Source: Clostridia bacterium (GTDB taxonomy: Bacteria > Bacillota > Clostridia > UMGS1840). Taken from it: a stretch of DNA of 64,000 nt. Numbering within the stretch: position 1 is the first letter of the stretch; each line of letters starts with the position of its first letter. Shown here piece after piece: positions 29,076-59,606 of the stretch. The stretch lies in contig JAZQKB010000037.1 of NCBI GenBank assembly GCA_045541975.1, positions 142,326 through 206,325 of the forward strand. The letters are read 5' to 3'. Below the pieces are notes generated by a model. The model was not told the origin of the DNA. It ran no database searches and saw only the letters and a program-made list of their open reading frames with translations. The position numbers were made by a program, and so were the translations under genes.

Positions 29076-29546
29076 ATGGAAAAAACAAACGCAATGCGTA
29101 TTTTAGAAAAGCAAAAAATTCCGTATGATGTGGAAACTTATGATGCTTCCGACGGCGTGATAGACGGGGTGTCTGTTGCCGGAAAAATCGGGCAGGATCC
29201 TAAATTTGTATATAAGACTTTAGTGACGCAGGGAAAATCCAAGAATTATTTTGTGTTTGTGATTCCAGTAGCTTGTGAGTTGGATTTAAAAGCAGCTGCA
29301 AAATCCGTAGGCGAAAAATCTGTAGAAATGATTGCTGTAAAAGATATCAATAAAATCACCGGTTATATTCGTGGCGGGTGTTCTCCTGTGGGAATGAAAA
29401 AACAGTTTCAGACCGTGATTGATGAATCCGCAAAAGAATTAGAATATTTCTATGTCAGCGGCGGAAAAATTGGACTGCAACTGAAAGTAAATCCCGTATC
29501 TTTGGCAGAACTCATCCACGCGGATTTTTCCGCAATTGCTTTTTAG
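29076..29546 (+). CDS. ybaK: Cys-tRNA(Pro)/Cys-tRNA(Cys) deacylase YbaK
   Basis: The translation has TNAMRILEKQKIPY...YKTLV...GYIRGGCSPVGMKK, which is the YbaK family pattern. Confidence 0.88.
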   Translation: MEKTNAMRILEKQKIPYDVETYDASDGVIDGVSVAGKIGQDPKFVYKTLVTQGKSKNYFVFVIPVACELDLKAAAKSVGEKSVEMIAVKDINKITGYIRGGCSPVGMKKQFQTVIDESAKELEYFYVSGGKIGLQLKVNPVSLAELIHADFSAIAF

Positions 29547-29552
29547 CCCACT

Positions 29553-29571
29553 CTTGACACGAACTTTGTCG
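29553..29571. repeat. Island left-boundary motif CTTGACACGAACTTTGTCG
   Basis: Its first 10 nt are the exact reverse complement of 31743-31752. Positions 29554-29571 recur directly at 31918-31934 (15/18). Confidence 0.6.
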
Positions 29572-29595
29572 ATTTTTGCGAAAGGAACTCATACT

Positions 29596-30414
29596 ATGGA
29601 CTCTATCAAACTATCAACAAAAGTTAGTTCTGATGAAAGAATAATTTCAACAAAAGATGCTATTAAGAATATATCTTTTGATCTAGAAAAACTAGGCGTA
29701 TACTTGGCGAGTATGCATCAATTATATGATTATAATGCAATGACATCTTCAATAAGCAATGCTCTTGACGAGTTTAGTAATGCTCTTATCAACGTAGGTT
29801 GCAATAAGGAATATGTTGCTGCTTATAAAAAGTGGGGAAATTTTGGTTGGTCATTTAATACAAATGTAAGTAAAAAGTTTTTTCTTACTGCTCCAAATTC
29901 TTTAGAAGAAGCTGATTCCATTATGCATGAGTATTGCAACTCGGAAACAATAACAAAAATGATGGAAAAACTAAAATCTGCCGGTGTTAACGAAAAAGAT
30001 TTGGAAGAGGCTTATTTTGATTATGATAATCGACAATATAAATCATCTGTTATGCTGCTATTTAGTTTGCTTGATCAACAGTTAATCAAAAGAAAATTCT
30101 TTAAAGAAGATGGTCGTTTAAAAACTGGGGCAGGTGTTATCGGAGAATTGAAAAAAAGCAAAAAACAACACAAAGAAAGCACACATTTACATTATATACA
30201 ATTCACTTTAATCATTTATTGTTTGATTAAACTGTTTGAGAGTAGTGAAAACTTTGAAATAGAGCCATTTGTTATTAATAGAAATTTTTTGATTCATGGA
30301 ATGAGTAACAGAGAAGTAAACGAATGTGATTGTCTAAAGGTTTGGTCTGCGTTATATAGTTTTGTAGTTGTTTATCCTGAACTTGAAAAAGAGATTTTAT
30401 CAAATGCTATTTAA
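29596..30414 (+). CDS. Hypothetical protein with C-terminal HEPN-like R-x4-H motif (island gene A, 272 aa)
   Basis: ATG 29596 follows GAAAGGA. The track ORF from 29536 is read-through from the ybaK stop region. The protein is predicted to be all-helical and has INRNFLIHG (R229-H234, nt 30280-30297). I recognise no other family. Confidence 0.6.
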   Translation: MDSIKLSTKVSSDERIISTKDAIKNISFDLEKLGVYLASMHQLYDYNAMTSSISNALDEFSNALINVGCNKEYVAAYKKWGNFGWSFNTNVSKKFFLTAPNSLEEADSIMHEYCNSETITKMMEKLKSAGVNEKDLEEAYFDYDNRQYKSSVMLLFSLLDQQLIKRKFFKEDGRLKTGAGVIGELKKSKKQHKESTHLHYIQFTLIIYCLIKLFESSENFEIEPFVINRNFLIHGMSNREVNECDCLKVWSALYSFVVVYPELEKEILSNAI

Positions 30415-30435
30415 AAAAACAAAGGAGATGTAATC

Positions 30436-31716
30436 ATGGGATTATTTGGGCCCTCAAAAAAAGAAAAAGTATTGCAGGCAGAAGTGGAAAGATTAAGTAG
30501 TTTGATGTTGCCTGAACATAGGGAAATTGATTCCCTTAATAAACAAATCGAAGTATTAAAAGCAGAAATAACAAACTTAGAAAAGACAATTGATGTTGAC
30601 CAAAAGAAGATTACTGATTTAAAAGCTAATATCAATACTTTGAATCATGAAATATTAGAGAAGAAAAAACAAATATCAATTTTCGATGTCGATATTGATG
30701 CTCAAGAATATGGTTTATACAAGCCGACTTTTGAATTTGCGAATTCAGACTTATATAAGGATAAATTAAAGGAATTGAGAGACAGACAAAAAGAATGTAT
30801 AAAAAATGATTCTGCAGCTCTTGGCAGTACTAATTGGACTGTTGATGGTAGTCAGGCAAAGGGACGTGCAATGGTTAAAGATAATAAGAAACTATTGCTC
30901 CGAGCTTTTAATGTTGAATGCGATGATATTGTTGCAAATGTTAAAGTATCAAATTTGGATAAATCTATCGAACGAATTAATAAGATAAGTGAACAAATTT
31001 CAAAGCTTGGAAAAACGATGTCAATTTCCATTACCCCTGGTTATATAAGATTGAAAATTGAAGAAGTAAAATTAGCATTGGATTTCCAACAAAAGAAACA
31101 AGAGGAAAAAGAGACGCTTAAAGAACTGCGAGCACAAGAAAGAGAAGAAGCAAAAGTTTTAAAAGAAATAGAAGAAGAAAGAAAACGCTTAAAGAAAGAA
31201 CAAACACATTATCAAAATGCTTTAGATAAAATTTTGAGTCAAATTGAAAAAAATGGTGAAACTGATGATTTGCTTGAGAAAAAAGCTCAGTTAGAAGCAC
31301 AAATTAATGATACAGCAGCTGCAATAGAAAATGTGGATTATCGTGAAGCAAACAGAAAAGCAGGTTATGTATACATAATAAGTAATATTGGTGCTTTTGG
31401 TGAAAATGTATATAAAATAGGCATGACGAGACGATTAGACCCACAGGAAAGAGTTGATGAACTTGGTGATGCATCTGTACCATTCAATTTTGATGTGCAT
31501 GCATTGATTTTTACAGATGATGCTCCTGGATTAGAAACTGCTTTACATAACGCTTTTGAATCAAGAAAATTAAATAAAATTAATTCTCGACGTGAATTTT
31601 TTGCAGTTTCTCTTGATGAAATCAAAGCGGAAGTTAGAAAGAATTTTGACAAAACAGTAGAATGGATAGATGTTCCAGAAGCAGAACAATACAGACAATC
31701 TTTATTGATTAAATAG
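30436..31716 (+). CDS. Coiled-coil / DUF4041 / T5orf172 (GIY-YIG-like) nuclease-domain protein (island gene B, 426 aa)
   Basis: An RBS AAAGGAG precedes it. The N-terminal heptad region spans aa ~10-80. The DUF4041-like core includes EYGLYKPTFEF...WTVDGSQAKGRAMV...LLLRAFNVECD. The C-terminal part, GYVYIISN...VYKIGMTRR...DELGDASVPFNFDVH...REFF, is T5orf172/MUG113-type. Confidence 0.8.
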   Translation: MGLFGPSKKEKVLQAEVERLSSLMLPEHREIDSLNKQIEVLKAEITNLEKTIDVDQKKITDLKANINTLNHEILEKKKQISIFDVDIDAQEYGLYKPTFEFANSDLYKDKLKELRDRQKECIKNDSAALGSTNWTVDGSQAKGRAMVKDNKKLLLRAFNVECDDIVANVKVSNLDKSIERINKISEQISKLGKTMSISITPGYIRLKIEEVKLALDFQQKKQEEKETLKELRAQEREEAKVLKEIEEERKRLKKEQTHYQNALDKILSQIEKNGETDDLLEKKAQLEAQINDTAAAIENVDYREANRKAGYVYIISNIGAFGENVYKIGMTRRLDPQERVDELGDASVPFNFDVHALIFTDDAPGLETALHNAFESRKLNKINSRREFFAVSLDEIKAEVRKNFDKTVEWIDVPEAEQYRQSLLIK

Positions 31717-31739
31717 TCATGATCTGTATAGGATGATTC

Positions 31740-31786
31740 TACTCGTGTCAAGTCCATACAATTTAAAACATTAGTTTGCCGATTTT
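31740..31786 (+). repeat. 47-bp dispersed repeat, copy 1
   Basis: TACTCGTGTCAAGTCCATACAATTTAAAACATTAGTTTGCCGATTTT matches 59493-59538 with 2 mismatches and 1 indel. Confidence 0.85.
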
Positions 31787-31917
31787 GATATTTACATATA
31801 CTGTCGGGAGCGAGAAAATTCGGTATTCTCGCGGGTTCTAAGGAAAAGTATTAAAGGAAAAACAGTGAGAAAATTAAGGAAAAATTAGTAGGTCCTATTA
31901 TTCACTGTTCTCCTGAC

Positions 31918-31934
31918 TTGACAAGAACTTGACG
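31918..31934. repeat. Island right-side direct copy of the boundary motif (TTGACAAGAACTTGACG)
   Basis: It aligns to 29554-29571 with 1 gap and 2 mismatches. Confidence 0.5.
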
Positions 31935-32330: not shown

Positions 32331-32370
32331 AAAAACAAAAACCCGAATGCATATTGCATTCGGGTTTTCT
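32331..32370. terminator. Bidirectional terminator
   Basis: The perfect palindrome ACCCGAATGCA TAT TGCATTCGGGT is flanked by an A-run and a T-run, between convergent genes. Confidence 0.85.
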
Positions 32371-59377: not shown

Positions 59378-59492
59378 GAACATATAAATTTTTTATTTAT
59401 TTTAATTTATATTGTTGTTCGATTTTTCTTGAAAGTAAGTAGCTTATATGAATATAGGTTTAATGTTTTATGGAGAAGGCGTAGAGAGTATT

Positions 59493-59538
59493 TACTCGTG
59501 TCAAGTCTATAAAATTTAAAAATTAGTTTGCCGATTTT
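59493..59538 (+). repeat. 47-bp dispersed repeat, copy 2
   Basis: TACTCGTGTCAAGTCTATAAAATTTAAAAATTAGTTTGCCGATTTT is nearly identical to 31740-31786 and in the same orientation. Confidence 0.85.
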
Positions 59539-59606
59539 AACATTTTGTTTTAGGGTATTATATAAACAGATGAGTTTATTGGTATCGTTATGAAAGGAGA
59601 AATCAT

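Follow-up and report, generated by a model that had tools for sequence, protein, structure and literature searches.

The window analysed here is a stretch of 64,000 nucleotides (nt) from a Clostridia bacterium (contig JAZQKB010000037.1). On its forward strand lies gene A, which has a YbaK-type deacylase gene and a homologue of the nuclease SNIPE as neighbours and starts at an internal ATG of a longer open reading frame (ORF). Gene A is a member of a large, previously undescribed protein family of gut Clostridia in which the residues of an R-x4-H motif are invariant. Membership of this family in the HEPN superfamily is likely but unproven, and the product of gene A is read here, on balance, as a divergent HEPN-type ribonuclease (RNase). 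The GC fraction of gene A is 0.298, compared with 0.399 for the whole window, and gene A and its downstream neighbour together have 30-31% GC against 40% for the window. The features of the locus are listed in Table 1, in which names with the prefix L denote other loci carrying members of the family.

Table 1. Features of the gene A locus, with positions in the window.
Feature	Position (nt)	Strand	Remarks
ORF containing gene A	29536-30414	+	Read from sequence
Left cassette junction, between TCTTGACA and CGAAC	29552..29562	+	Homology to L012 starts here
Shine-Dalgarno-like AAAGGA	29582..29587	+	8 nt before gene A ATG; stretch kept in L012, L077 and L009
Gene A	29596..30414	+	272-amino-acid soluble all-helical protein of an unannotated Clostridia family; predicted HEPN-like domain
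Residues 1-67, variable N-terminal helical hairpin	29596..29796	+	pLDDT 40-66; poor conservation
Residues 68-132, family-specific conserved subdomain (KKWGxYGW, P100, A106/D107)	29797..29991	+	pLDDT 97-98
Residues 133-165, predicted HEPN helices 1-2 (DLEEAxxxYxNxxYKS...LLFSLLD)	29992..30090	+	Aligns to Dandelion HEPN domain
Residues 166-227, variable insert (LKTG loop, low confidence), then predicted helix 3 (194-213)	30091..30276	+	
N228-R229-N230-F-L-I-H234-G235, predicted catalytic R-x4-H motif	30277..30300	+	pLDDT 93-98
Residues 236-272, predicted last core helix (243-271)	30301..30411	+	Conserved D245 and C246
Downstream SNIPE / PD-Lambda-1 homologue (DUF4041 + GIY-YIG/T5orf172), 426 amino acids	30436..31716	+	Own ribosome-binding site
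Conserved 186-nt element, cassette 3' end	31741..31926	+	Inverse core TCGTGTCAAG at start, core CCTGACTTGACA at end

An earlier note, made from the letters of the window alone, had described gene A as an orphan helical protein with an HEPN-type R-x4-H motif. The ORF, its translation, the quoted peptides and the motif R229-x4-H234 were located as it described. The segment NRNFLIHGMSNRE, which carries R229, N230 and H234, is present in the protein, and nt 30280-30297 code for R229 to H234. This is the sole R-x4-H in a protein that contains six arginines and six histidines. As shuffled sequences of gene A contained an R-x4-H in 12% of cases (RN-x3-H in 0.8%), the presence of the motif in a single sequence is weak evidence. 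The Kyte-Doolittle maximum over 19 residues was 1.24, so gene A has no transmembrane (TM) segment, as the note had also claimed, and no amphipathic membrane anchor was found in it.

The description of gene A as an orphan did not hold. As a single sequence it had no match in Pfam, NCBIfam, PADLOC, PHROG or the PDB sequences; the best matches, ANK_LRRK2 (0.11), PADLOC SAVED (E = 0.019) and ABC solute-binding proteins (0.02), were treated as noise. A word-indexed search found 17 close relatives, and a profile built from them was searched against 1.84 billion cluster representatives (clusters at 50% identity). At E ≤ 1e-3 the profile matched 839 clusters, of which 239 stayed at or below 1e-30. All 839 were unnamed and without a match in Pfam, NCBIfam, PADLOC or PHROG, and the 111 proteins listed by a further profile search were all 'hypothetical' and without Pfam domains. 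Because the family is absent from these four resources, defence-system annotators miss it. A genome scan located 53 family loci, all in Clostridia or other Bacillota, among them Lachnospiraceae, Oscillospiraceae, Acutalibacteraceae, Christensenellaceae, Catenibacterium, Gemmiger and Pseudoflavonifractor. The family occurs widely among Clostridia of the gut and rumen, and one cluster of Roseburia faecis comprised 443 member sequences on at least 1000 contigs. A tblastn search with gene A gave no match in 50,697 phage records or in 72,556 plasmid records.

Many relatives are about 400 amino acids (aa) long; their conserved domain is C-terminal and is preceded by an additional stretch of about 150 aa. 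When 10 relatives, including eight long forms, were searched with Pfam, no N-terminal domain was found. Five long forms of about 400-500 aa (P0027, P0033, P0038, P0062 and P0084) had in common an N-terminal domain of about 110 aa (approximately residues 10-120), followed by a variable, helical linker of low complexity. Neither part had a Pfam match and both are absent from gene A.

To describe conservation, gene A was aligned with 147 diverse members of 22-70% identity. N228, R229 and H234 were the sole invariant columns among the 148 members, and the motif is therefore beyond chance. Columns conserved in at least 90% of the members were W80, G81, G84, W85, P100, A106, D135, A139, Y148, K149, C151, I164, G178, A181, F214, F220, N230, G235, M236, D245 and C246. 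Two further member sets (alignments A3 and A5) gave the same picture, including the invariance of R229 and H234. The earlier note had asked whether these two residues are conserved among homologues; in every full-length homologue examined both were invariant, and N230 and G235 were nearly so. D160, which lies in the predicted helix 148-165, was invariant in 18 close relatives and present in at least 90% of 48 genome-derived members; it was not among the columns conserved at 90% or more across all 148.

An AlphaFold2 model of gene A, computed with a deep alignment, reached a predicted local distance difference test score (pLDDT) of 83 and a predicted template modelling score (pTM) of 0.79. The models were essentially all-helical, in accordance with the helix-rich translation that had been noted before. 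Long helices were located at residues 133-144, 148-165, 194-213 and 243-271. The insert between the second and third of these (166-193) was of low confidence, with pLDDT below 50 at residues 177-189, and helix 194-213 was confident. The motif was placed in a short helix (229-233) ahead of the last helix. The HEPN domain is a four-helix up-down bundle. In the published description an insert often separates helix 2 from helix 3, the motif precedes helix 4 and helix 2 contains an acidic residue (PMC3710099); the predicted insert of gene A and the predicted position of its motif are consistent with this. R229 and H234, invariant in the 148 members, conform to the R-x4-6-H of HEPN proteins. In catalytic HEPN motifs the arginine is typically followed at once by a polar residue, N, D or H (PMC3710099), and the residue at this position is N230 in at least 90% of the members. 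The spacing from D160 to a basic residue departs from the E-x3-[KR] typical of HEPN helix 2. The suggestion that the N-terminal 130 residues or so form a separate sensing domain was not borne out: residues 68-147 belong to the conserved core (pLDDT 97-98) and are therefore not a variable sensor, and of the N-terminal part residues 1-67 alone are variable and modelled with low confidence.

Relationships to known families were sought by profile searches. When 70 members were scanned one by one against the 24,736 Pfam models at E ≤ 10, the families that recurred most often as sub-threshold matches were HEPN_Apea, in 7 members, and Csx1_HEPN, in 4. Among 48 independent genome-derived members Csx1_HEPN tied for first place (3), and several families, HEPN_Apea among them, matched 2. 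The best E-values in relatives were 0.027 for HEPN_Apea and 0.0033 for Csx1_HEPN, both sub-threshold, and gene A itself had no HEPN_Apea match. A profile of the domain alone was then compared with 177,635 PDB sequences. The top match, at E = 0.16, was 9wx2 ('Dandelion-hepn'), and it covered the helix pair DLEEAxxxYxNxxYKSxxxLLFS. This solved HEPN domain aligns with the very segment that the earlier note had quoted as a pattern of HEPN helices 1-2. In a search of the PDB with the full-length alignment A2, most matches had been to designed helical bundles and to HR1 of the coronavirus spike; they fell on the low-complexity N-terminal extension of the long forms, and the search was rejected and repeated with the domain alone.

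The comparison with Dandelion was extended using a set of relatives. A word-indexed search with a 57-aa Dandelion fragment returned three fragments only, and full-length relatives were obtained by tblastn on plasmids. Twelve Dandelion-like HEPN domains were assembled in this way and checked against 9wxf and 9wx2 at E = 3e-60. In hhalign, the gene A family aligned with these 12 members at a score of 34.0 and a probability of 50%; the accompanying P of 1.7e-4 is not corrected for selection, as Dandelion had been chosen as the top PDB match. The reversed alignment scored 10.2, and 60 block shuffles gave a mean of 16.6 and a maximum of 31.9. With lower maximum accuracy (MAC) thresholds or in global mode the alignment extended collinearly, placing INRNFxxHGM on kdRNLxAHP.

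Dandelion, represented by the domain 9wx2 and the full 460-aa protein 9wxf, is the best PDB sequence match of the family, although the similarity stays below the threshold. In both, helices 1-2 bear the signature E-x9-Y-[KR]-S with a hydrophobic helix after it, and an RN/RH-x3-H motif occurs some 92-94 residues further on. Both features are collinear, and both families are unannotated in Pfam. They differ in architecture, as the HEPN domain of Dandelion is N-terminal in a protein of about 430-460 aa, whereas that of gene A is C-terminal behind a WGxxGW subdomain. They also differ in location, since Dandelion occurs on plasmids of Enterococcus, Bacillus and Streptomyces and gene A in no plasmid record. 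Dandelion homologues were present in 152 plasmid records, 99 of them from Enterococcus and including the linear pELF-type plasmids of E. faecium. Among the homologues listed (L065-L076, e.g. NZ_CP116206.1 37436-38737), all those annotated were called 'hypothetical protein', and the two that were scanned, L065 and L066, had no Pfam match. A search for 'Dandelion' in a literature library found no paper.

Since no match passes a conventional threshold and Dandelion was picked as the top match, we regard HEPN membership of the family as likely but unproven on these alignments.

The genomic context of the family was surveyed at about 48 non-redundant loci. At 16 of them the family gene adjoins, or is one to two genes from, a type IIG restriction-modification (R-M) enzyme, BREX, HsdS, GmrSD or SNIPE. 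It directly follows MmeI-type enzymes (six loci), 1340-aa ResIII+Eco57I proteins (two) or HsdS (two), lies downstream of the BREX protein BrxC (two, with the family gene directly upstream of PglX in L051), comes after GmrSD, sometimes with a MazG-like gene in between (three), and directly precedes SNIPE at one. Gaps to the defence neighbours are often 10 nt or less. The genes that lie second or third from the family gene include AbiEii/OLD-type ATPases, GmrSD, HsdM, Schlafen-type helicases and recombinases (integrases, resolvases). Links to R-M systems have already been described for 16 or more HEPN clades (PMC3710099). As the neighbours vary, the family gene is a self-contained module that rides in defence loci and is not an obligate partner of SNIPE.

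Several loci held further arrangements of the family gene. In L028 (3945-6591) two paralogues of 401 and 471 aa follow one another on one strand; such a tandem arrangement would suit a dimeric enzyme, and the two proteins could form a heterodimer. In L017 (6587-7873), L019 (6839-8116) and L022 (1956-3170) a protein of 404-428 aa without a Pfam match is encoded 58-59 nt downstream of the family gene; its C-terminus, judged by eye, is similar to the endonuclease motif of the Vsr/DUF559 type (EYQGxQH...). The two genes may make up a pairing that has yet to be characterised.

The downstream neighbour of gene A in the window matched the PADLOC model PD-Lambda-1 at E = 1.7e-151 over profile positions 59-472 of 491 and the Pfam families DUF4041, T5orf172 and MUG113. 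SNIPE is a GIY-YIG nuclease that forms a one-protein system and is anchored in the membrane; no TM segment is present in 34% of the homologues (PMC13190303). The homologue in the window lacks the first 58 profile positions and has no TM segment (Kyte-Doolittle maximum 0.83). As its ORF cannot be extended upstream, it is without the N-terminal membrane anchor of E. coli SNIPE. Its gene starts 21 nt after the stop codon of gene A and in the same reading frame (window 30412-30438). The pair occurs in four flanking contexts (window, L012, L077 and L009), and identities for gene A and SNIPE, respectively, are 79% and 95% in L077 and 65% and 81.5% in L009. In L009 (4607-7448; also in L010, L011 and L013) the family gene and SNIPE, together with a gene that by eye resembles pentapeptide repeats, lie within a histidine-biosynthesis operon, between the glutamine amidotransferase gene and the His_biosynth genes.

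Comparison with L012 by blastn defined the bounds of the unit in which the pair is found. Window 29552-31901 is 97% identical to L012 5957-8305 and the flanks differ; the homology ends after CCTGACTTGACA (31923). These bounds were not shown by a repeat finder and emerged from the comparison of the window with L012. The gene A and SNIPE cassette (window 29552-31926) is thus 2.4 kb long and has CTTGACA cores at both bounds. Across nine unrelated contigs, the 186-nt element at its 3' end shows 91% identity. The fold of this element comprises a closing stem of 12 bp and an internal hairpin that includes two compensatory pairs. L012 (4444-8399) and L101 (1661-3638) each have three cores on the same strand that separate small gene cassettes, and tandem copies of the 186-nt element separate the cassettes in both. 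Matches of a 17-base pattern in metagenomes were mostly due to chance, with about 25 real copies recognised by the 17 conserved nucleotides upstream. The cassette organisation therefore explains the 'island' around gene A. Gene A and the SNIPE gene are probably co-transcribed and travel together as the 2.4-kb low-GC cassette. The arrangement has the look of a site-specific cassette system, integron-like or of another kind; the surroundings of the cassettes showed no recombinase. At window 59491-59545, 55 nt that include the inverse core repeat the 5' part of the element at 89% identity with no cassette attached; the copy is intergenic, with genes for an MFS-type transporter and an aldo/keto-reductase-like protein on its two sides.

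Taken together, the invariant motif, the agreement of the sub-threshold matches on HEPN and the location of the family incline us, by a modest degree, to the view that gene A is a divergent HEPN-type RNase acting as an abortive or second-line defence effector. The protein would be a soluble, probably dimeric endoribonuclease with its predicted HEPN core at residues 133-272. Helices 1-2 of this core, which carry E138, Y148-K149 and the acidic D160, would be followed by the variable insert, helix 3, the invariant N-R-N-x3-H-G-M and the long last helix; residues 68-132 would form a family-specific conserved extension and residues 1-67 a variable hairpin. The protein may be held latent until phage infection switches it on. 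Once active, it would cut cellular or phage RNA (tRNA, rRNA or mRNA) independently of metal, as other HEPN RNases do, and the cutting would halt translation. It may in this way back up an adjacent DNA-targeting system as an abortive-infection or second-line effector; in the window this would be the SNIPE nuclease that has no TM segment. Of this picture, the family and its spread, the invariant motif, the setting in defence islands and the bounds of the cassette have been shown, whereas the HEPN fold, the RNase activity, the latent state with its trigger and any cooperation with SNIPE are inferred.

Known systems offer partial parallels to this proposed role. Like the R-M-linked HEPN RNases such as PrrC (PMC3710099), the family would consist of predicted HEPN RNases whose genes lie within or next to loci of the R-M type, and by analogy with PrrC its location suggests a latent second line that is released when the DNA-targeting system fails. 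PrrC and RloC join an N-terminal, regulatory ABC/Rad50-like ATPase to a C-terminal HEPN domain, and gene A lacks such an ATPase; no P-loop or ABC match was found in gene A or in the 10 relatives tested (eight long forms). PrrC is tied to type Ic systems, whereas the gene A family occurs with MmeI/type IIG enzymes, BREX, GmrSD, type I S subunits or SNIPE, or alone. The copy in the window, with its SNIPE neighbour, is not embedded in an R-M locus as PrrC is, but other members lie within or border on MmeI, type I, BREX and GmrSD loci. ApeA and AbiV (10.64898/2026.01.26.701840, 10.1101/2024.05.05.592566) are single polypeptides with an R-x4-H HEPN effector that act in abortive infection, and members of the gene A family are predicted to be alike in this. 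No member reaches the Pfam thresholds of these families (best E = 0.027) or matches PADLOC, and AbiV (9bj7) was found by Foldseek only at E = 2.2-5.9; both ApeA and AbiV differ from gene A in size and accessory regions. The HEPN-MNT (type VII) toxin-antitoxin systems have an adjacent gene for a minimal nucleotidyltransferase (MNT) antitoxin, which the gene A locus lacks; the 25 Pfam families found most often in the 96 + 128 flanking genes included no nucleotidyltransferase family. Gene A shares a mobile cassette with SNIPE / PD-Lambda-1, but it contains neither DUF4041 nor GIY-YIG and falls outside the defined system.

A number of results weigh against an HEPN RNase with a defence role. No HEPN match reached a curated or conventional significance threshold. 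Foldseek searches with two models against the PDB gave nothing significant (best E = 0.29 for the confident model), nor did a search with one model against BFVD, in which the best match was an uncharacterised phage protein (E = 0.24). The HEPN entries AbiV 9bj7, AF_0298 2hsb, Cas13b 8wfa and Csm6 5fsh appeared only at E of 2 or worse. The HEPN assignment of the earlier note is partly supported, by the invariant motif, the weak but concordant sub-threshold HEPN matches and the all-helical model, and has no significant structural match. In addition, D160 is two positions off the invariant D48 of Dandelion (D48-x3-K52). No antitoxin or obvious regulator is encoded beside gene A, and gene A is a short form without the N-terminal domain, so the restraint of a toxic RNase is unexplained. 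SNIPE acts alone in E. coli and no accessory gene has been described for it (PMC13190303). Relatives at 62-80% identity lie with a conjugation module, an amidoligase/integrase element or a UvrD-like helicase, or have no partner. As partners vary among such close relatives, there is no evidence of a specific functional tie between gene A and SNIPE.

An alternative that we consider unlikely is that gene A is a non-HEPN helical protein of defence islands in which N-R-N-x3-H-G-M is a catalytic or ligand-binding site of a different sort, for example that of another hydrolase or one for a nucleotide or second messenger, its resemblance to the HEPN motif being due to convergence. Such a protein would account for the missing Foldseek match despite a pLDDT of 83, for the sub-threshold nature of every sequence link to HEPN and for the WGxxGW subdomain (68-132), which has no counterpart in known HEPN families; and an R-x4-H arises by chance as often as the shuffles of gene A indicate. 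Foldseek is, however, weak on small helical bundles, and its query was the whole 272-aa model and not the domain alone. Against this alternative, four independent weak signals point to one superfamily that makes up well under 1% of Pfam and the PDB, and helices 1-2 and the motif are collinear with a solved HEPN domain at equal spacing. The asparagine after the arginine and the R-M context fit the published rules for HEPN proteins (PMC3710099).

A further alternative, which we hold to be somewhat less probable still, is that gene A is a non-toxic accessory or adaptor that localises or activates the adjacent DNA-targeting protein or gives it phage specificity, here the SNIPE without a TM segment and elsewhere MmeI, BREX and others, and that it does not itself act as an effector. 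Most family members have no SNIPE neighbour, the partners are mechanistically unrelated, and no fusion to SNIPE or R-M domains was found among the 150 + 111 relatives listed. A strictly invariant N-R...H fits catalysis better than a surface for varied partners. In favour of an adaptor, the SNIPE homologue in the window lacks the membrane anchor that E. coli SNIPE needs (PMC13190303); against it, gene A has no TM segment or amphipathic anchor. The close spacing of the two genes, 21 nt here and 2 nt in L077, their movement together and the faster divergence of gene A than of SNIPE in L077 and L009, as expected for a specificity factor, would suit an adaptor.

A bolder form of the RNase reading joins two proposals, and we give the conjunction only a slim chance. 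The family would be a generic, ATPase-less 'guard' RNase of gut Clostridia that docks onto unrelated immune proteins (MmeI-type R-M enzymes, BREX, GmrSD and SNIPE) and fires when a phage disables them. At the same time, the pair with SNIPE would be moved between genomes by an unrecognised integron-like recombination system marked by the 186-nt 3' element bounded by inverted CTTGACA cores.

Least probable of all, in our judgement, is that gene A serves the mobile element, as an addiction or stabilisation toxin or an anti-defence factor on cassettes and on conjugative or integrative elements: close relatives do lie inside a conjugation module between TraG-like and coupling-protein genes and in an element flanked by an integrase and a resolvase, gene A itself is in a mobile low-GC cassette and recombinases are common two to three genes off, but no cognate antitoxin-like small gene is conserved beside the family gene, the phage and plasmid records held no copy, and about one third of the loci are inside or against R-M, BREX or GmrSD operons, often within 10 nt, which is the classic position of host defence accessories.

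If gene A is an RNase as we favour, the family would add a further HEPN clade to the R-M-linked 'second line' systems, and gene A would be the first accessory partner noted for SNIPE homologues without a membrane anchor. With 272 aa and two point mutants, it would be a simple test case for how an HEPN toxin is silenced without an antitoxin or an ATPase.

Rfam gave no match for the 186-nt element, and its single hit in the 28-34 kb part of the window was sub-threshold: SpF36, at 32.9 bits against a gathering threshold of 48. It fell on a perfect 14-bp inverted repeat with T-tracts at window 32338-32368, between convergent genes, which is probably a bidirectional terminator.

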